Shown here: piece after piece, positions 30,875 through 41,439 of the stretch
Numbering within the stretch: the stretch's first letter is position 1
How the letters are laid out: each line of letters begins with the position of its first letter
From: Candidatus Heimdallarchaeota archaeon
GTDB taxonomy: Archaea > Asgardarchaeota > Heimdallarchaeia > JABLTI01
Length of the DNA: 64,000 bases
Direction: 5' to 3'
NCBI GenBank assembly: GCA_018238155.1
Contig: JABCTZ010000019.1
Location: 131,774 to 195,773 of the forward strand
Program-made: the position numbers and the translations under genes
The notes under the pieces: model-generated
What the model was told of the DNA's origin: nothing
Databases searched by the model: none
The model's input: the letters and a program-made list of their open reading frames with translations, nothing else

Positions 30875-31969
30875 TTGACTGATAAAATTGCTTATTTGGA
30901 CTACAAAATATTAGAGAATTTTATGATCGATGTATTCAAAGGAATCGGCGTTCCTGAAGATGATGCGAAGATTTGTGCTGAAATATTAATTATTTCTGAC
31001 CTTCGAGGTATAACTTCTCATGGCGTTCAGAGGTTAAAAATGTATTATGATCGAGTAACAGCTGGCATTCAAAAACCTGTTACCGAAATAAAAATTCTGA
31101 GTGAAGCACCTTCAACAGCTTTAATTGATGGAGGACACGGAATGGGTCACGTTGCTGCATACAAAGCTATGGAGATTGCTATTAAGAAAGCTAAAGAAAC
31201 TGGTTCTGCAGCCGTAGCAGTTGGTAATTCAACTCACTATGGTATAGCAGGTTATTACCCATTAATGGCTATTAAAGAAGGGATGCTTGGCATGGCTGTA
31301 ACAAATGCAAGGCCATCTATTGCACCAACTTTTGGGATAGAACCAATGATGGGCACAAATCCATTAACATTCGGTTTACCAACAGACGAAGAATTTCCAT
31401 TTGTAATTGATTGTGCTACTTCAATAACCCAAAGAGGAAAAATAGAAGTTCTCTCAAGAACAGAAACACCCGCACCTGAAGGTTGGGTGATAAATGAAGA
31501 CGGAAGTTTAGCAACTGATACAGTAAAAATATTGAAAGATTTGAAAGAAGGAAAAGCTGCACTATTGCCTTTAGGAGGTGCTGGAGAAACTCTAGGGGGA
31601 CACAAAGGATACGGCTATGCTGCTCTTGTAGAAATACTTTCAGCAGCTTTTTCTGATGGACCATTTCTGAAAGATTTAACTCTTGAAAAAGGGTATAAAA
31701 TAGGTCATTTCTTTTTCGTGATTGATATCTCAAAAATCATTTCATTAGATGTTTTCAAGAAAATTGCAGGTGATATTTGTCGTTCATTAAGAAATTCCAA
31801 AAAAGCACCAGACCAAGAGCGCATTTATACTGCCGGTGAAAAAGAATTTGAGATCGAGAAGAAAATAAAGAAAACTGGTGTTCCACTCAATAAGAGCTTG
31901 CAAAATGATCTGCTTTTCATGCAAAAAGAATTAGGGTTGAAACTGTTGCCACTTTTTATGGACAAATAG
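30875..31969 (+). CDS. Ldh_2-family (malate/L-lactate/sulfolactate) dehydrogenase; C-terminus supplied by the inserted element
   Basis: DLRGITSHGV, STHYGIAGYY, GTNP, GHKGYG; the last ~9 codons and the stop derive from the left end of the element. Confidence 0.92.
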   Translation: MTDKIAYLDYKILENFMIDVFKGIGVPEDDAKICAEILIISDLRGITSHGVQRLKMYYDRVTAGIQKPVTEIKILSEAPSTALIDGGHGMGHVAAYKAMEIAIKKAKETGSAAVAVGNSTHYGIAGYYPLMAIKEGMLGMAVTNARPSIAPTFGIEPMMGTNPLTFGLPTDEEFPFVIDCATSITQRGKIEVLSRTETPAPEGWVINEDGSLATDTVKILKDLKEGKAALLPLGGAGETLGGHKGYGYAALVEILSAAFSDGPFLKDLTLEKGYKIGHFFFVIDISKIISLDVFKKIAGDICRSLRNSKKAPDQERIYTAGEKEFEIEKKIKKTGVPLNKSLQNDLLFMQKELGLKLLPLFMDK

Positions 31970-31974
31970 GACAT
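31953..31974 (+). repeat. Left terminal inverted repeat
   Basis: TTTTTATGGACAAATAGGACAT, the exact reverse complement of 43065-43086; imperfect extension to 31941. Confidence 0.9.
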
Positions 31975-31993
31975 ATAAATAATGTGAAAATTT

Positions 31994-34900
31994 TCACTTG
32001 AAGCTATCAAATGAGACGATTTTTGGAAAGTCTAAAGAATTAGGGTCAAGAACTATGAAGCATCGTTGGTGGTAAGGATCGCCCTTTTTTGTCCAGTGAC
32101 CAGAACCATAAACTCGAAAGCGTTCATTATAAAATCGGAGATGAACATGTCCAACAACAAGATGTGTTTCTTCAGTGATATCAGGCAACCAAATCTTGTC
32201 AAATTTTATTAAATTCTTTTTTGCTTCAAAGACCGCTTTTCCAATATTTGTTTTATTTACTAGTGCAGGATTTATACCGATTCTATTTCCATGAACGAAT
32301 AATACTTGCTCCGAACCGATCTCAACTTCAACATAGTCTTGGTGGAGGAAACCTGTGAATTGCTCAAGATTACCGTCATGAATAGAAGAACTGCGTATTA
32401 GAACTAGTTTCGACCAAAAACCTTCTTTTAGAGCTAATGCTTTAAATTCAGCAAAAACAAGATGACTTTCTTCAGAAATAGTATCTAACAAATCACCGTT
32501 AATAATGATAATATCTGCTTGCTTACTCTGTTGTTTAATAACTTCAAAAAATTCTTCTTGATAACATAGCTTGTTTGTAAGGTGAATATCTGAAAAAGCA
32601 ATAATTCGGTTTTCACGGAAATTCATTTGCTCAGAAGGAAATTCATCAAGAAGATCATCATCAGATTCTACAAACGAGATCTTTGTCAAATCCTTAAATA
32701 GAATTTTGAGAGAATCTTTCACTCCTTTAGGAAGCAAACCGAGAATCTCCCCGTAGCAATTCTTACAACCATCTTCACAAGAACAATCAGTTAATCTTTT
32801 GAGCGTTTGAGTAGCGACTTTTTGTAAATGACTGAACAAATACTCAGAATTGCCATTTGGATCTCCTTTATCATAAACTGTTAATTGATTAGTATTAATT
32901 GCAAGTGCGAATTCATTACCAGGGATAGAAAGAACGGTTTCAATCTCAACTTGTAGGACCCGCCCAAAATATTCCAATAATTTCTTAGTTGTAAGTTCTT
33001 TTGGTTTTGGAAAGTCCGATTTTAATGTAATAACTAATCCATCTGATTTTTCAGTAATAGCCAATTCATCCGATCGTTTTTGGGTTAATTCTTGCCAGAA
33101 AAAGTTCTTGTTAACCTTTTCTTCTGTATTCTTAAAAATAATTTTTTCAGGATTAGTGTTAACAATGGCTGAAGGTTGTTGTTTAATTGAAACCTGTCCA
33201 AAACTTATATCAACTATTTTTGTTCCTTTCACTTTCTTAGCGAAAACACCTAAAGTAATCTGAGGATCAAGTAAACGATTAGTTATTCCATAAGAATTTC
33301 TAGCACTTTTTTCTTTTGAGAGTAATTTTTTAACATAGATAATTCTTAATTGCTCATCAAAATCCAATACAAGATATTGTTCTTTGTTACGAGTGATGGT
33401 GTTTCCAGGCAAGCCTTTCTTTAAAACATCTCGAGAAGAAATCTTGCCAAGACTAAATGTTTTATTTTCAAACCAATCAGAACTTGGTCCCAGCTCTTTC
33501 TTAATAGACCAATTATTACTAATAGCTCGAATGGAAAAGGGAATAAGATGATTCTTCTTTTTTGCTTGCACTTTTAGCTTATTTTCTCCTTGACTTGTGA
33601 AGAGAAGTTTCCCATCATTACCTTTTTTTAGTACCATTAAACTGACAAGCTTGGTATATTGTAATCTAGCTAATCGATAAACTTGTGTTCCTTGTTCAAG
33701 GAAGAACTGCATTATCTCTCCAAAATCATTAATACCGTATCTAAGATGCAGTATGATTTGCCCTGCCAATATCTTCGGGTTAAGCTTGGGGTAAAGGATA
33801 GGATTACAAGTATTCGATTCAAGAATATCTTTGAGTATTTCCTAATTGTTCCAGTAAAAACTATCGCGTTTCTTGGAAAGATCGAACAGAAAAACATTCG
33901 TTCTTCTTTCCCCAGGAACAGAGCGATTACGACCAAAGCGTTGAATTATTCCATCTTTTTGTGTTATTGGAATACCAATATTAAACACAGTTTGGATGTT
34001 AGGGATGTTTACACCAAGCTCTAAGACAGAAGAAGAGAGTAGAATTCTAATAATATTCCTACTTCCTTTTTTAATCTCATCTAGAACTTTTTTACGGTGA
34101 TCATACGGTAAATCTGCATGGATCATCTCAATAGTATCAGGATCAAAGAAAGGGTCATCTTGTTTGAGCTTTTGACACAAACAGTTTGTTAATAATTCTA
34201 TATCTTCTTTCGAATCAAGGAAAACAAGGCAAACTTTTCCAGGCATTTTCTCTAACTCCTTCCAATATTCTGCAAGTAAAGAAACTGTATGCTCAACAGT
34301 CGTTCCAATATACACTTGCTCTCCTCTTACAGGTGGACAAGTAATTATTTTTGCTGCAGGTAAAAAGTCATTTCTGAATTTCTCTACATCTGCTATAGTA
34401 GCAGATGAAAGAACAAATAGGCTCTGAGGGCTCAATTTCTTATGTATATAAATAAAACCCTTAATATTTCCTGCAGCGTAACCGTCAAAAGCATGTATCT
34501 CATCAAAAACAAGATAATTAGCAGTCTTTATTTTTTTTATCAAAGGACTATTGTTACCATTCTTAAAATGATACCAAAATTTGTCAAAAGTTGCAAGCAA
34601 AATATTTGGTGGTTCTTGTTCTGTGTCATCCAATTCTTGATCCTTTACTTTAGTTACCCCTTTAGAGGAATTGGTGCTTCCAGTATCTCCACTGTACATT
34701 TTGCAAGTTAATTTTATACCTGTTTTTTCCTCAAATTTTATGAGGTACTCTTTCACTCTTTCAACTTGATCTAGAAGCAATTGTTTTGAAGGGTAAAAAA
34801 TGACCATAAAATCCGTTTCCTCATTTAGTTGTTTGATAATTCCAGGAACGATGAATGAAAGCGATTTCCCGGAATATGTTCCACCATTAATAATAAGGTC

Positions 34901-35173
34901 TGGACATTTCTTATTAGCTGAATTATTCAATAAATGCTTTATTGCTTGTTCTTGATGCTTGTAAGGATTAGTGCTACCGGTTATTTCTTCGATCACTTCT
35001 GCTAATGCTTGAACATTACCAGGTAAGAGTTCTTGCCAAGTGAGATCAGTTACTTTCCTTGGTTGTGTTGCTGGAAGATTATGAATAGACTTCCATTTTC
35101 GAGGTTTACTAGGTTTAATCGGGAAGATCTCTTTCCTATTAAAATTGTATTTGCTTTTTACCATGAATGTCAC
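31994..35173 (-). pseudogene. SF2 DEAD/DEAH helicase (MrfA/Hrq1/DUF1998-like) fused to a calcineurin-like metallophosphoesterase, interrupted by one in-frame TAG at 33842-33844
   Basis: ORFs 33842-35173 and 31994-33769 are in the same frame: FYWNN*EILKDILESNTCNPILYPKLNPKILAGQIILHL. Helicase motifs GTYSGKS, DEIH, SAT, ELGVNI, QRFGR; CSCEDGCKNC; phosphoesterase motifs SDIH, NGDLLD, HGN, GHVH. Confidence 0.85.
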
Positions 35174-38100
35174 CTATCATTTTGAAATATTTTCTACTAG
35201 TTGCAGCTTTTTCTTCAACCCAATCAATTACTCTTCGAATAATAGTTGTTGGTTCCCAATTTAACCAATAATTGTTGTGAAAATTTTTTTGAAAACTATC
35301 AAAAAACATTCTGAATTGAGAAATAATACTTGATACTTTATCTAAGTGAGGAGGTATATCAATTATCAATTCTCTTGTAAAAATTTCATCTCTTGTTAGA
35401 GTAACTCCTAGAGCAAACCGAAGCTCCTTTACGTTTTGGTTTTCAAGATTTAATTGATAAAGATTTTTCTTGTCTTTTTTATCTCGGAGAAGTAGACTTC
35501 TAGAAACCATTTGGTCAAGTATTCTCTGTATTTGGTTTTGTGTTAGACCGAGCAATTCCCCTAGATTACAAGTTGAGTATTCAACAATTGTGAAGTCTAT
35601 TTCATGAGCATTGTACAATAACAATAAAATAACAATCAAACTCCTATCTTGCTCTTTAATTTGATGTTTGGTCAATCGAAAAACATTAGACTGTTCGATT
35701 ACTTCTTTCTTGTACCAATGATTCATTGTTTCTGCTCTATAGTTTTCTCTTGCTCTTTTTCGCTCCAAAACTTCTTGTTCTATTCCCTCAAAAATTACTC
35801 CTCCTTCACTTGCAAAATGATTTAGCGCTAATAACTTCTCTTCGAGTTCAGCTGGGCAGAAAGTAAACGGAATGAAATGGGATTCATCAAAACACTTTTT
35901 GATCTTTTTCAAAGTTATCTGCTTATGCATATCTATCTCTGATAGACATTTTTCAAAAGCAACCCTCAAGCACAGAAGATTGAATTCAAATGCTCGCTGA
36001 AATGTCATTATTTGTCCATTATGCGAAACAGATTGTTCAAGAGCTTCTGAAACCAAATTGGTGAATTTGTCCAAGGAAGAACCTTTCACTTGATAGATCT
36101 CTTGTCCATCCTCACCTAGTACGTATTTACAATCGTTGAATCCGAGGGTACCATCTCTAATAGCTTTTACCATTGTTACTAGCACAAGTACACGAACAGC
36201 TTCTATTAGGTCAAAGTAGAAACCTAGCTTATCAATATCTGACTTTGTTTTTCTTCTGTGAAACAAACCAGGACCTAAAAGAGCGGGGTCCATGCCCATC
36301 TTATGAAACAGCTGATCTACTTCTGCTCTAAATGAACGTAGCATTTGATTAAGAAGAGCATCTAAAGGTGAAAAGGCACTGCTAACCTTATTGCTGAAGG
36401 ATAGAAACATATCTATCACTAATCGACTATTTACTCGCCCTTTTGTCCAGAGACCTACTCTCGCAGCTTCTGCCTTCAACAAATCAAAAAAGTGTTTGTT
36501 GCTTAGTGCTTCTAATTGAGTGCCATAATAACTTGACTTAACTTCTCCACCAATTACTTTCATGTGCAAATCAACCATTCCTAATAATTGATGATTGTAG
36601 GACCAGTCAGAGAAACTTTTCAATTCTATTTCATACTTTATCGATAACAAACCAGCAATATTTGAGAGATGCCTTGCTACCAAAAATTGATGGTTGAATA
36701 TTTCATAATCTGAGCTTTTTTTGATTATTTTTTCAATATAGAAATAGTCTTCAGCTGAAAAGGTTTTTTTATATCGACTTTTTGCTTTTTTCTTCTTTGA
36801 TTTTTGTTCTGTTCGTACAATTTCGTATTTGTACTTTTCTGGTTCAAAGTCAGCTAGTAATCTCAGTGTTCCCTCTAATTCTTGGTGTCGTATGCCTGAA
36901 AAATAAACAAACTGCACTTTATCCAGAGCAATTTCATATTTACCAATCACTAGATAATAAGGTGGTTCATCACTCGCTTCGTTAATTTTTATTCTTGAAC
37001 TCTCTACGTCATGTATGACATAAACGTAAGACGGATCTTTTTTCTTCAAAACATCAGGAACAGTTGCAGTTTCTTTATAGTAAAGGCTTCTTTGATGGTG
37101 CCTTTGCTCCATTTTCACTCTAACTTTTTTCTTATCTTTTAATAGGAGATAGATTGTCGAACAATTAGTACAGATAACTCTTCGTCTTGGAAAGAAAATT
37201 CTATCGAGTGTGCCAAATTCCTTTATTTGTTCTTGGCAAGAGAGACAATGATATTCATACTCTGAAACATTTCCTGATAAGAAACTTATTGGTATATCCT
37301 TCATGTCTTGAGTTAGCTCGTCAGCAGTAGTAGTGTATCTAACATTATCTCCATCTGATTCATAATCTTCTTTTTCTTTGTATTTCCCACAAGCAGTCAA
37401 TTCAAATCTAATTGTTCCATTTGCATATTCTATATCGTCACTATCTAATGTACTAGGGTTTTTTGCTTGTTGTAAGCGCAAGAAAGTGCATGTTTTGAAG
37501 CGTTTATTGTACCATTGACAGTTCCCGCAATTCTTTTGGAGGTGAGGGTTCGCATCCAGTAATTCTTGAGTAAGATACTTTAATTTTGATTCTCCTCTAT
37601 TAGTGTAAGTAATGATGCGAACAAGACGTCCTTCTTCTACTAATCCTTCCAATACTTTCTTGGCTTCTTGCCAGAACATGTGATAATAATCACCTGTGAA
37701 TTTCACAGTTAAGGTTTCTCGATTGGCTCTTCGAAGAATCCATTCTATTCTTCTTTCTTCAATGGTGCATTTCTCTTCTTTATTATAATTCTTGAATTGT
37801 TGATAGAAAATGTATGCTTCAGTATTCATTAATTTTTCAAAAGCACCAAGGACTTTTTTAGCTGAAATTCTTTTGTAATTTTTAATTATTGGATTGAATT
37901 TCCTTTCAATGATCTCGATCATTTGATCATTCTTTTTTTCAGTATCTAACTTTTCAGGTATTGCCTCCTCAAATCTTTTAACTGTTTGATAACTACTGCC
38001 TATCAGTTGAAGATAAAAAATGATTATCTCATTCACGGAAAATTTGTGACTTTCTTTTTTGTTTTTGTAAAGAATCCTTGAAAAATGAGCTAAAAGTTCA

Positions 38101-39317
38101 CTAAAATTACCCTCGACACCACCAAACCATGATGACACACTAAAAATTGCTTCCCCTAGAGTACTAAGTTTGAATCTTCCTTTTTCCTTGGTGACTACCG
38201 GAAGAAATCTTGCTGATTCTTTTGGTTTGTCCCAGGAATACGTTCGAGATAGATCTTGTTTACTGAGGTCAACATTAAAATCAAAACCTCTATAAGTTAT
38301 TTCTCCTGTTATCGTTTTAGTGTTTTGTCCTTTTGTGAATGAATGAATGTGTTTTACTATTCCACCGAAAACTTTCTGATCAAGCCTATTCTTTTCTTTA
38401 AGAAGTTCATCTGAAGGTAATTCTTCTTCTGAGGAAGGAAAAACTCCATTACTGTAGAGGTACAGTTTATAAGTAAAAGTTGTTTTGAACTCTTTAACCA
38501 GTTCTTTTATCAGTTTTCTTCCCCTAAAAAGCTCTGTGAAAATAAATAATTGGAATTGATCTTTATATAGGTGAGGAATAGCTTCTCTGAAAGGATTATT
38601 GTATTCTAATCTTATTCTTTCATCGCATCGAAAGAAAAAACTACTATCAGCTTTAAAGAAGAATTGGTAATCTTTCCTTGATAGTATTGGGAACTGTGCT
38701 TCATCAAGAATGAAGGAATAATTCGGTCTAATGCGCTTATGCCTATGAACACAGCCAAAAATAACATCTAATTTGCCTACATCCTCGTTGATATGTTTTC
38801 GTCTTAATGGATTGATCAAGATAATTTGTACTGAAGAAGGATCATTCTTGTTTGTTGTTAAACCCCAGAAAGTGTTATATGTTGTCAAAATAAAATCTGC
38901 TTCATTAGGATAGTCTGCTTTGATTTCTTTGTCAACTTTTTTTCTTTGGGTTTCATTCGAAACATATAGTCTAAAGCAAGAATTGAGTTTATTAAACTGT
39001 TCAATAAACATTGAAGTTTCAAATCGGTTGTTGGTAACAATAATTACAGGTAATCGCGTGTAATTCTTCATTGCTAGTGCTCTTCGAACACCAAAGGAAA
39101 TGACAAAATGATTAGGTTCGAAGTCATTTGGTTTACTTTTATTACCACAAACAAGGACAAAATTTTTCGTTTCAGTGAGAAAAGCTGTTCTATCCTGGAA
39201 AGAAAAATTGTCTAGAAGGTCTTTATCGATTATTCTTTCCCTTCCTTCTAATACTTCTGTCACACCCATAGAAAGGCAAAGAGGAATTTTTTTTGTGGAA
39301 GAAATAGCTTTACTCAT
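35139..39317 (-). CDS. Multidomain Cas1-like integrase: degenerate SF2-helicase-like N-terminus, Zn-binding motifs, Cas1 catalytic domain, C-terminal wHTH
   Basis: QLEALSNKHFF (E936), SPLDALLNQML, GMDPALLGPGLFH (H1020), LGFYFDLIEAVR (D1036/E1039) follow the Cas1 pattern E..yF / P.nalLN / GlDP..G.lH / l..DliE.fR. Confidence 0.8.
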   Translation of the reverse strand: MSKAISSTKKIPLCLSMGVTEVLEGRERIIDKDLLDNFSFQDRTAFLTETKNFVLVCGNKSKPNDFEPNHFVISFGVRRALAMKNYTRLPVIIVTNNRFETSMFIEQFNKLNSCFRLYVSNETQRKKVDKEIKADYPNEADFILTTYNTFWGLTTNKNDPSSVQIILINPLRRKHINEDVGKLDVIFGCVHRHKRIRPNYSFILDEAQFPILSRKDYQFFFKADSSFFFRCDERIRLEYNNPFREAIPHLYKDQFQLFIFTELFRGRKLIKELVKEFKTTFTYKLYLYSNGVFPSSEEELPSDELLKEKNRLDQKVFGGIVKHIHSFTKGQNTKTITGEITYRGFDFNVDLSKQDLSRTYSWDKPKESARFLPVVTKEKGRFKLSTLGEAIFSVSSWFGGVEGNFSELLAHFSRILYKNKKESHKFSVNEIIIFYLQLIGSSYQTVKRFEEAIPEKLDTEKKNDQMIEIIERKFNPIIKNYKRISAKKVLGAFEKLMNTEAYIFYQQFKNYNKEEKCTIEERRIEWILRRANRETLTVKFTGDYYHMFWQEAKKVLEGLVEEGRLVRIITYTNRGESKLKYLTQELLDANPHLQKNCGNCQWYNKRFKTCTFLRLQQAKNPSTLDSDDIEYANGTIRFELTACGKYKEKEDYESDGDNVRYTTTADELTQDMKDIPISFLSGNVSEYEYHCLSCQEQIKEFGTLDRIFFPRRRVICTNCSTIYLLLKDKKKVRVKMEQRHHQRSLYYKETATVPDVLKKKDPSYVYVIHDVESSRIKINEASDEPPYYLVIGKYEIALDKVQFVYFSGIRHQELEGTLRLLADFEPEKYKYEIVRTEQKSKKKKAKSRYKKTFSAEDYFYIEKIIKKSSDYEIFNHQFLVARHLSNIAGLLSIKYEIELKSFSDWSYNHQLLGMVDLHMKVIGGEVKSSYYGTQLEALSNKHFFDLLKAEAARVGLWTKGRVNSRLVIDMFLSFSNKVSSAFSPLDALLNQMLRSFRAEVDQLFHKMGMDPALLGPGLFHRRKTKSDIDKLGFYFDLIEAVRVLVLVTMVKAIRDGTLGFNDCKYVLGEDGQEIYQVKGSSLDKFTNLVSEALEQSVSHNGQIMTFQRAFEFNLLCLRVAFEKCLSEIDMHKQITLKKIKKCFDESHFIPFTFCPAELEEKLLALNHFASEGGVIFEGIEQEVLERKRARENYRAETMNHWYKKEVIEQSNVFRLTKHQIKEQDRSLIVILLLLYNAHEIDFTIVEYSTCNLGELLGLTQNQIQRILDQMVSRSLLLRDKKDKKNLYQLNLENQNVKELRFALGVTLTRDEIFTRELIIDIPPHLDKVSSIISQFRMFFDSFQKNFHNNYWLNWEPTTIIRRVIDWVEEKAATSRKYFKMIGDIHGKKQIQF

Positions 39318-39542
39318 AAAAGAACCTCATTTTAACACTTTTTTTCTGTCTTATTACCCCAATTTCGATCAAATTGTCCCTTATTTAATGTTATACTGGC
39401 AAATTTACTTTAAAAAGGACTAAAAAACCGACAAAAATAGTTCCTTTATAAACGTCAAAAAAAATGACCTTCCTTTCTGATTTATAAGACCTTAAAATAG
39501 ACGTTTTTTGTATTAAAAAATACTAGTTTCTCAATAGAATTT

Positions 39543-39627
39543 CGCACGAGTGCGCCCGAAGGGCTGACCATTGTAAATGGGCAGATAGCACTATGCGGGT
39601 CGGCTCCGAGCCAGAACATTGAGTGTT
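39543..39627. other. GC-rich run of six tandem mini-hairpins (putative structured RNA or DNA site)
   Basis: CGCACGAGTGCG, GCCCGAAGGGC (cUUCGg on the - strand), CTGACCATTGTAAATGGGCAG, GCACTATGC, GGCTCCGAGCC, AACATTGAGTGTT. Confidence 0.55.
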
Positions 39628-39637
39628 TTGTCAATCT

Positions 39638-41176
39638 TCAACAGATATCCTTACAAATACAAAATTCTTTGACAAAGGTCAAAAGTACAGCATTATAGAG
39701 CATTCTTTTATTTGGTTTATCAATTGAAAAGTAATTACAGAATTTTTGTTTATATTCTTCCAAAGGTTCTTGTGGTTTCCCAATAAAAAGAATATAATTT
39801 AGTTCTTTTAGCTGAATTCCTTTTAGTAAATTTAAAAGATTGGAATTTGCTTTTGTTTTTAAAACACACTTTGACCTACTTGCTTGTATGGATATCTTTG
39901 GATTTTCTTTGTAAAATTTTAAAAGCGAGTAATTTGATAAAGTAAAAATCTGTGAAAGAATTGAAATTGGTATAGCTGTTGTATTACGTTCATATTCTGA
40001 TACCATGCCTTGGTGAATTGGTAGTTGTTCTGCAAATTCTTTCTGAGTTAAGCTACCGCGTAATTTTTTTAGTAGATTCCCTGTATTCCCTATACAGAAA
40101 TTTGGACATCTAGTATAATCAAAATAACCTTCAATCAGCTTTTCCTTTTGATAGTCGATTACTTGCCCACTCCAAGTACCACTTTTTAGTAAAGTCTGAG
40201 GTTTCGGTGAAAAACGATTAACTCTTCTTGTTAGTAACTGTTCTAGTTCGAGTTGTTTTTGCGGATGCTTTGAACCAACTAATACAGCAAACTGTTTTCG
40301 ATAATTACCAGCAATATTTGCTGCATACGTCTCTACTCCAAATAGAAAATTGGTATACAATCTATACTCAATTCCATTTAATTTCAGAAAATTGATAAAA
40401 TCATTAAACAATCCTTGAGAAACAGTGCAGAAATTTATTGTATCTTTATAACTTCCATCGGCATCCATAATACCGGACCAAAATAGCCTGCGGAAAGTGT
40501 CATTGGTCTGGAAGATAAGTGGTTCTCGTAAAGCAGGATACTTTCGAGCAGCAATAGGTTGTGAAGAAAGGAAATTAAAGAACCTGACAAGCCATTTCCC
40601 TAGGATGTTCACATTCCAAGCATTAGCATTTGATTGTTTGAAAAACTCAGTTTTGGACTTGAAAAGTTCTGATAACTGCTGAGTTAAATTTTCAATATGC
40701 TCTTTTGAAGCATCAATGATATTGATAAAGAACTCAGCGAGATGCCCATCTCCCATAATCACCCCTGTAAGGTATGCTAGTTCTTCGGATAAATAAAGTG
40801 GTAATTGAAAGCCCTCTCCACGAGCAGATTGGAACGAAATACTTTGTCTTCTAAGAAAAAACTCTTGCCAAGTTTCCGCTAACCGGAATAAAGGGAAAGG
40901 CAATCGTTTTTGCTCTTCTAAATACTTAATTATTCTTTTCTGCCAGGAGCGAATGGAAAAATCAGCTTTGGTCCCCCGGAAATAATGATGAGTTTTTTCT
41001 GCTAAGAAGAGTGTCTTCTTTCGAATCTTCTCTATCCAAGTTTCTTCTAACACAACATATGGGAATGATTGCAGTAACCGCTCTCCTGTAACGAAATCAA
41101 TTTTGCGAACCATAATAGAATAAAGTTGGAATTGATTCTCCGGAGTGAAGATCTTCTCTGACTGGTCGCTCTCCAA
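39638..41176 (-). CDS. Double-motif LAGLIDADG (DOD-type) endonuclease-like protein with an XRE-type HTH
   Basis: ELAYLTGVIMGDGH and FWSGIMDADGS; LKKLRGSLTQKEFAEQLPIHQGMVSEYERN; the frame stays open upstream to 41287. Confidence 0.85.
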   Translation of the reverse strand: MESDQSEKIFTPENQFQLYSIMVRKIDFVTGERLLQSFPYVVLEETWIEKIRKKTLFLAEKTHHYFRGTKADFSIRSWQKRIIKYLEEQKRLPFPLFRLAETWQEFFLRRQSISFQSARGEGFQLPLYLSEELAYLTGVIMGDGHLAEFFINIIDASKEHIENLTQQLSELFKSKTEFFKQSNANAWNVNILGKWLVRFFNFLSSQPIAARKYPALREPLIFQTNDTFRRLFWSGIMDADGSYKDTINFCTVSQGLFNDFINFLKLNGIEYRLYTNFLFGVETYAANIAGNYRKQFAVLVGSKHPQKQLELEQLLTRRVNRFSPKPQTLLKSGTWSGQVIDYQKEKLIEGYFDYTRCPNFCIGNTGNLLKKLRGSLTQKEFAEQLPIHQGMVSEYERNTTAIPISILSQIFTLSNYSLLKFYKENPKISIQASRSKCVLKTKANSNLLNLLKGIQLKELNYILFIGKPQEPLEEYKQKFCNYFSIDKPNKRMLYNAVLLTFVKEFCICKDIC

Positions 41177-41439
41177 AAGGTCATTTGCTGTGAGCCATTT
41201 ATTCCGCTCCGTTGGTTCAGCATCCCCTAGCAGTGGATCATCTGACCAGTGGAGATGGGTCGTAATTGTTCTATTCCTCCTAACTGATTATTGTTTTTTT
41301 GCTTCTTAAATACCCCTTTGATTAGCTGTTCGAAAGTCGAATTGATTAAACAATTGTTAAAACAAACGATTAATACTTTCAGTAATCTCTTTGGAAAACA
41401 GCTATATATCTAGCTAAATATACTTTTTGTTGAAGAAAA

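Follow-up and report, generated by a model that had tools for sequence, protein, structure and literature searches.

A TnpB-carrying element of a Heimdall-group Asgard archaeon and its probable integrase, a diverged Cas1 relative fused to a dead helicase

The stretch of DNA analysed here (referred to as the window; 64 kb of contig JABCTZ010000019.1 from a Heimdallarchaeota genome) carries on its minus strand, between positions 35139 and 39317, a single uninterrupted frame of 1392 codons that encodes a fusion protein, P0001, with an Asgard Cas1-like (aCas1) part. P0001 is a genuine yet very diverged relative of Cas1, fused to a dead helicase and to DNA-binding modules, and its gene lies, together with three others, between the inverted ends of a mobile element of about 11.16 kb. 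A reading of the sequence alone (the sequence-only reading) had described the frame as a multidomain, casposase-like Cas1 integrase; its observation on the frame was confirmed, and its interpretation is, overall, supported by the results below. The gene and the parts of its product, the folds being those predicted by AlphaFold2 (AF2), are as follows.

35139..39317, minus strand: gene of the aCas1 fusion protein P0001, 1392 aa (26 homologues; dN/dS 0.25 against the copy in a sister species, G009)
37773..39293, minus strand: inactivated Hel308/Ski2-like SF2 helicase module, aa 9-515 (VIA, Foldseek and alignment)
37161..37529, minus strand: two four-Cys zinc modules, aa 597-719 (Cys invariance and weak profile matches)
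36813..37025, minus strand: beta-strand domain in the place of the Cas1 N-terminal domain, aa ~765-835 (AF2 model and VIA)
35853..36755, minus strand: Cas1 alpha-helical catalytic domain, aa ~855-1155, with E936/H1020/D1036/E1039 (VIA, HHalign and HMMER)
35418..35669, minus strand: C-terminal winged helix-turn-helix (wHTH), aa ~1217-1300 (VIA Z ~7)

Scans of the whole of P0001 against Pfam, NCBIfam and PADLOC returned no family of value, scans of its parts likewise gave nothing of use, and the sole phmmer match among PDB sequences, a ribosome hibernation factor, was at chance level and was rejected. A word-indexed search of 5.8 billion proteins retrieved 26 relatives, almost all 1355-1392 aa long, and those bearing taxon names all belong to Heimdallarchaeota metagenome-assembled genomes, where they are annotated as hypothetical. 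The family is rare, since just 41 proteins matched its profile at E<=0.001 in an exhaustive search of 1.84 billion cluster representatives. It is present in five of ten other genomes of the same genus, often in multiple copies (many of the related copies being truncated or stop-bearing), and was not found in 30 genomes of other genera (E<=1e-20); the host genome has one full-length copy. A search of sequencing runs found small shares of the locus in marine-sediment and cold-seep metagenomes only, and no RNA datasets containing it. When 21 full-length homologues (33-74% identity to P0001) were aligned, the best-conserved stretch was the Cas1-like aa 921-1040, whose conservation is far above chance, and E936, H1020, D1036 and E1039 were invariant. 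Between the window copy and the G009 copy, dN/dS was 0.25 over the 1392 codons.

The Cas1 catalytic pattern that the sequence-only reading had pointed out is intact, with E936 in LEALSN, GMDP at 1008, GPGLFH at 1015-1020 (H1020) and FDLIEAVR at 1035-1042 (D1036 and E1039). That reading had also anticipated a structural match to Cas1, and one was found with both Foldseek and VIA-align, using an AF2 model of aa 735-1392 built from the family alignment (mean pLDDT 80.9). The top 50 Foldseek matches in the PDB were all Cas1 or casposase, the best being the Methanosarcina mazei casposase (6OPM; E 1e-8), and VIA-align gave Z 19.6 to Archaeoglobus fulgidus Cas1 (4n06; 258 residues, rmsd 3.3, model residues 36-420), Z 19.2 to RT-Cas1 (7KFT) and Z 18.5 to the casposase (6opm). 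The first 42 VIA rows were all of the Cas1 family, after which the next fold, a winged helix matching another part of the model, dropped to Z 7. The alignments to Cas1 chains start at model residues 7-36, and aa ~765-835 form five strands, a helix and a strand in the model. That is, both the beta N-terminal domain and the alpha-helical catalytic domain of the two-domain Cas1 fold are found in the AF2 model, which shows the C-terminal half, as predicted, to have this fold.

Pfam Cas_Cas1 (PF01867) matched neither the whole protein (E<=0.1) nor aa 740-1170 (E<=5), and hence membership in the Cas1 superfamily rests on profile-profile and fold evidence. A shallow profile made of the 21 sequences gave a plausible HHalign alignment to Cas1 but a probability of 1.8%, and was set aside; a profile extended to the 21 members plus 33 distant family members, compared with ten canonical Cas1 proteins from related genomes, reached 97.3% probability and E 1.7e-11, a significance that is due to the added distant members. 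In this alignment E936 is paired with the Glu of the Cas1 'EG' motif, H1020 with the His of 'LH', and D1036/E1039 with 'LDxxExFR'. The active site of casposase consists of E162/H232/E247 (PMC6977970), and HMMER independently pairs the DLIE motif of P0001 with the casposase DLQE that holds the catalytic E247 (i.e., E1039 = E247). Searched against PDB sequences, the profile reached 6opm at E 0.27 at best, and two short distant members, P0052 and P0058, match the family profile and, weakly, Pfam Cas_Cas1. Taken at the sequence level, these alignments show the putative metal-binding Glu-His-Glu(Asp) set of Cas1 to be present and invariant in the P0001 family.

The N-terminal half, modelled as aa 1-735 (pLDDT 74.8), resembles the helicase cores of Hel308, Hjm, Brr2 and Pol-theta. 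VIA gave Z 21.5 to Hel308 (2p6r; 361 residues, rmsd 4.9, model 9-512 vs. chain 2-626), a match that covers both RecA domains, the winged helix and the ratchet region; Foldseek gave E 2.6e-5 to 2va8, and the module is also similar to Hachiman HamB (Z 17.2). The helicase-like motifs listed by the sequence-only reading are in place (VIIVTNN at 91, ADFILTTYNTF at 140, FILDEAQ at 202), the fold is of the SF2 (Hel308-like) type, and the remark of that reading that a usable Walker A is absent was borne out across the family: a GxGK[ST] loop occurs at the expected position in none of the 21 full-length members, which read CGNKSK, CFNPH, CQDNS or CPS there. The DEAQ of P0001 is not conserved (DSAL, DAKS or NAKS in other members), whereas the ELFRGR motif is kept across the family despite this decay. 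Because the P-loop is missing and DEAQ decays, ATP hydrolysis has been lost family-wide in the helicase-shaped module, and these results show the N-terminal half to be a Hel308-type fold unable to bind ATP via a P-loop. The Cys clusters (CGNC at 597, CLSC at 691, CTNC at 716) are also where they had been described and form two four-Cys modules, C597/C600/C610/C643 and C691/C694/C716/C719, of which all eight Cys are invariant in the full-length homologues; the region has weak TIGR04104 and Zn_ribbon_8 matches. Finally, the C-terminal wHTH of the earlier reading (HTH helix at 1252) has VIA matches at Z ~7 to the SmtB/HlyU/MepR wHTH proteins, a precomputed PF01978 TrmB assignment in three homologues, and a weak MarR match.

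The element that encloses the gene spans positions 31938-43093 (about 11,156 bp), contains four genes, and is delimited as follows (strand does not apply).

31938..31974: left inverted end, with GGT at 31935-31937 before it (inverted repeat; left-type ends)
43065..43096: right inverted end, overlapping the last tnpB codons, with the final GGT at 43094-43096 (inverted repeat; right-type ends)

A perfect 22-nt inverted repeat (31953-31974 vs. 43065-43086) lies within imperfect inverted ends of ~32 bp. The limits of the element follow from an empty site in the sister species (G009, contig C99), where the left flank is joined to the right flank with one GGT and the window has two; only GGT, or at most GGTT, is thus repeated at both sides. 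The same 3-bp junction repeat is found at a second element, at another G009 locus, and at 23 further ends. Copies of the right-type end in the host genome are conserved through ...AACGGT (43096) and then all differ, and copies of the left-type end are conserved to AACTGTTG plus three semi-variable bases plus GGG[T/C], past which all differ as well; 13 left-type ends in six genomes share one terminus, and in 10 right-type ends the divergence begins directly past GGT. A pure GGGT left target motif without duplication, in the style of IS605, was considered, and the end sample together with the empty site favour instead a 3-bp GGT repeat or crossover core; a 6-bp duplication fails for the G009 element and was ruled out. 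This second G009 element (locus L034) has all four genes intact at 69-84% DNA identity, with the aCas1 gene at L034:8695-12873 and the helicase gene at L034:12839-16015, and its right flank is preceded by GGGT in the host genome. An 18-nt core of the ends has 9, 25, 10 and 4 matches in four genomes of the genus, compared to 0-1 for a control pattern, and in G009 many of these matches sit at contig ends. No Y1 TnpA (PF01797) was found in the host genome (90.7% complete), which leaves the Cas1-like protein as the only recombinase candidate on board.

A few further observations concern the insertion sites. The Ldh_2 dehydrogenase gene at 30875-31969 has its last codons and its stop within the left end (31913-31969), that is, the insertion replaced the original C-terminus of Ldh_2. 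On the other side, the target (43097-43115, and G009 contig C99) forms a short palindrome, with AACTCA and TGAGTT three bases apart, and separates two convergent genes, for which it may be a terminator hairpin. Where G009 carries its second element, the host genome (C17:8230-8533) has ~300 bp, by the left end, that are absent from G009, reflecting either a deletion with or after insertion in G009 or an insertion in the host genome. Finally, identity to the G009 element is uneven, with 83.5% DNA identity and dS 0.5-0.65 over 31929-39482 (helicase and aCas1 genes) and 69% and dS ~1.8 over 40445-43100 (LAGLIDADG and TnpB genes); element lineages appear to have swapped these halves with one another.

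The aCas1 gene shares the element with three partners.

31994..35173, minus strand: partner helicase, with DEAD/Helicase_C, an MZB (DUF1998) zinc domain and a calcineurin-type phosphoesterase (domain scans)
39638..41176, minus strand: LAGLIDADG + HTH_3 protein, WhiA/meganuclease-like (domain scan; same place in loci L001, L002 and L034)
41440..43083, plus strand: TnpB, 547 aa (Pfam OrfB_IS605 and Cas12f1-like_TNB; sequence motifs)

The partner helicase, whose zinc domain is of the MrfA type, is encoded by a 1059-codon frame downstream of the aCas1 gene, with a 35-nt overlap. A single in-frame TAG, at 33842-33844, breaks this frame, the codon of homologues being AAA (Lys) or AGG (Arg); the TAG may have arisen by recent nonsense mutation, result from misassembly or be read through, and the G009 copy of the gene is uninterrupted. 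Walker A (motif I), DEIH (motif II), motif VI and the phosphoesterase motifs are kept in 25 partner-helicase homologues, which lie on the same contigs as aCas1 homologues, and in every case a helicase-MZB-phosphoesterase gene that looks intact comes after the aCas1 gene, often with an overlap. In PADLOC, the partner helicase matches the SngC, DruE, Cas3 and BrxH models. Upstream of the aCas1 gene come the LAGLIDADG-HTH gene and then, on the opposite strand, that of TnpB, in which sequence inspection recognises LAIDLG, TIEDL and ADRD at the RuvC positions and a CxxC..CxxC finger. The order tnpB, LAGLIDADG-HTH, aCas1, helicase recurs in L001, L002 and L034, which belong to three other genomes, amid unrelated flanks. 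With dN/dS of 0.14-0.25 between the window and G009 full copies, all four genes are under purifying selection. The LAGLIDADG and aCas1 genes are separated, on the minus strand, by a GC-rich run of hairpins (39535-39635) that the G009 and L001 copies retain with other stem sequences (for example AGTGC/GCACT vs. GACGC/GCGTC), which suggests a conserved structured RNA; the fold z-score is only -1.7, and an Rfam scan of the element gave one match, weak and implausible.

Relatives of these genes also occur elsewhere in the host genome. A distant paralogous trio on contig C19 (22442-28511, or 4442-10511 of locus L036) begins with a 1212-aa Cas1-like protein, 23% identical across the catalytic region, and continues with a DEAD helicase of 451 aa, here separate, and an MZB protein of 344 aa; a phosphoesterase domain was not detected, and TnpB is not among the scanned neighbours of the trio. 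On contig C6 (28000-47900; L035) there is a decayed relative of the element with a left-type end, in which the aCas1 region is deleted and a C-terminal fragment of the helicase is fused directly to a LAGLIDADG fragment, followed by two TnpB genes, another LAGLIDADG gene and a 627-aa protein with wHTH and Cas1-like parts. Another Asgard Cas1-like protein is found on contig C43, and a separate canonical Cas1 is encoded on contig C15.

We consider it likely that P0001 is the integrase (transposase) of a ~11.16-kb TnpB-carrying transposon of the aCas1-TnpB kind in this Heimdall-group Asgard archaeon. Under this model, P0001 would grip the inverted ends via its wHTH and zinc modules and, as Cas1 and casposases do, let the 3'-OH of the element ends attack a GGT-containing target at positions only ~3 bp apart on the two strands. 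The dead helicase part might hold DNA, or hold the partner helicase as the scaffold suggested by the sequence-only reading, and the motor and phosphoesterase of this partner could prepare single-stranded or trimmed ends. TnpB, with a guide RNA transcribed from the right end onward into the flank, would cut the empty site (GGGT plus flank), which may favour retention or homing of the element; by analogy with IS605-type elements, an empty site composed of GGGT and the right flank would be the arrangement that an end-encoded TnpB guide needs.

Several findings weigh against this model. Only GGT (3 bp, or 4 at most) is common to both junctions, whereas casposases and CRISPR Cas1 produce duplications of at least 14 bp, and therefore either integration must follow a different geometry or the element is inserted by some other mechanism. 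The short repeat is the main point that simple casposase-like action does not explain; it could reflect active sites ~3 bp apart, single-stranded ends prepared by the helicase, or another insertion route. Further, two more proteins of the element, TnpB and the LAGLIDADG protein, are candidates for cutting DNA, and because of the TAG in its partner helicase gene the window copy may be no longer autonomous. A repeat finder returned no terminal inverted repeats around L001 and L002. Insertion of the 11-kb element by a Cas1-family enzyme at a fixed GGT, with a stagger of merely ~3 bp, the help of a helicase-phosphoesterase of its own and a target motif in common with the RNA-guided nuclease TnpB, is a tentative proposal, one that we regard as possible and rather doubtful.

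Among the other explanations, the strongest is that the Cas1-like protein and the helicase-MZB-phosphoesterase are defence or DNA-repair cargo, and that the element moves by TnpB and/or by LAGLIDADG homing plus recombination. The 3-bp junction repeat does not resemble Cas1-type integration, pairs of a helicase with DUF1998/MZB are typical of defence systems, and both the PADLOC matches of the helicase (SngC, DruE, Cas3, BrxH) and the similarity of the N-terminal module to HamB (Z 17.2) point the same way, as does the paralogous trio on C19 with no TnpB among its scanned neighbours. The dS of 1.8 for the LAGLIDADG/TnpB half vs. 0.5-0.65 for aCas1 and helicase also indicates separate histories. 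However, the conserved inverted ends enclose precisely these four genes, the element has no other recombinase and the search of the genome for TnpA was negative, and homing nucleases copy into the same allelic site, as opposed to the many different flanks seen here. We view the cargo role as unlikely.

A fossil element, in which the protein keeps its Cas1 fold but now serves the host, as a regulator that binds DNA or in a structural role, would account for the one full-length copy in the host genome, the TAG-interrupted partner gene and the many related copies that are stop-bearing or truncated, but not for catalytic residues that stay invariant across 33-74% identity or for a dN/dS of 0.25 over 1392 codons. 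G009 moreover has four intact genes, and its numerous end copies frequently coincide with contig breaks, which is the behaviour of recent repeats; taken together, we find this explanation quite improbable. It is hardly conceivable that the Cas1 resemblance is a chance match of a helical domain: the lack of a Pfam Cas_Cas1 match, also when the domain alone is scanned at E<=5, and the E of just 0.27 for the profile against PDB sequences, would fit such a coincidence, but Z 19.6 over 258 residues, 42 leading VIA rows of Cas1 before a fall to Z 7, the HHalign E of 1.7e-11 and the bridging sequences P0052 and P0058 would not.

It is important to note what the integrase model would imply. Cas1 is the enzyme that writes CRISPR memory, and TnpB is the ancestor of Cas12; to our knowledge, casposons are the sole characterised mobile-element relatives of Cas1. 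An Asgard branch in which Cas1 is fused to a dead helicase and travels with TnpB would represent another use of the integrase, and bears on how adaptation and effector modules first met. If the Cas1 domain makes the short GGT junction repeat, this would be mechanistically new; that is, the tentative proposal above, if true, would add a third mode of Cas1 integration to casposons and CRISPR adaptation, and would provide a natural element in which a Cas1 relative and the ancestor of Cas12 cooperate outside CRISPR. The window locus, together with the intact G009 copy, supplies defined ends, a target and an empty site.

Comparison with known systems places the element more precisely. CRISPR Cas1 proteins (A. 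fulgidus 4N06 and RT-Cas1 7KFT) give the highest structural scores, and their catalytic motifs align with those of P0001. Nevertheless, the element is not a CRISPR adaptation module, since no CRISPR-like array or tandem repeats were found in the 64-kb window and the canonical Cas1 is encoded elsewhere (C15); the element holds only four genes, Cas2 not having been searched for by profile. The M. mazei Family 2 casposase (6OPM) shares with P0001 the two-domain Cas1 fold, the E/H/E pattern, a C-terminal HTH and a location within a mobile element having inverted ends, but is about 400 aa long vs. 1392 aa for P0001 with its dead helicase and zinc modules. Casposons have a family B polymerase and 14-15-bp duplications; here the terminal inverted repeats are present, none of the four large ORFs between the ends has a polymerase domain (and thus family B polymerase is lacking), the junction repeat is 3 bp, and TnpB is on board. 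The element is not a casposon, because it lacks the polymerase and has a 3-bp instead of a 14-15-bp duplication. Of the casposase-like enzyme proposed by the sequence-only reading, the mobile-element integrase therefore stands, given the inverted ends, the empty site and the scattered end copies, whereas the casposon does not.

The element also resembles TnpB elements of the IS200/IS605 type in that tnpB lies at one edge and runs at its 3' end into the terminus of the element, the far end adjoins a fixed target motif of a few bases, and the empty site consists of this motif plus the right flank. Unlike those elements, which have asymmetric hairpin ends, it has inverted repeats, is an 11-kb unit with three further large genes, and comes from a host genome in which no Y1 TnpA was found.

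Its closest counterpart has been described before. Asgard Cas1 homologues linked to TnpB were reportedly first presented by Makarova et al. in 2020 (CRISPR J 3:156). Altae-Tran et al. (2023), who credit Makarova et al. 2020 with the discovery of the Asgard homologues, describe 'Asgard Cas1s (aCas1)' that replace TnpA beside TnpB in two Asgard groups, named Cas1H-Asgard-1/2, and predict aCas1 to be a transposase because the locus is often repeat-flanked (PMC10691335). As far as the available portion of that text goes, the likeness extends to a Heimdall-group Asgard host, an extremely diverged Cas1 homologue beside tnpB, a repeat-flanked locus with a predicted transposase, and WhiA/meganuclease-like and helicase genes that travel along; the same portion does not confirm the 1392-aa architecture among the published groups (PMC10691335). 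It also reports a hypervariable stretch past a conserved T downstream of tnpB, followed by GTTCACTCA (PMC10691335). The copies here diverge right past the terminal T of GGT, and GTTAACTCA at 43095-43103, straddling the element end, equals GTTCACTCA with one mismatch, a match that is no more than chance since the window has 15 such one-mismatch matches vs. 14.9 expected. The element matches the published aCas1-TnpB kind, known from sequence analysis alone, and its exact ends, its empty site and its GGT junction repeat were worked out here.

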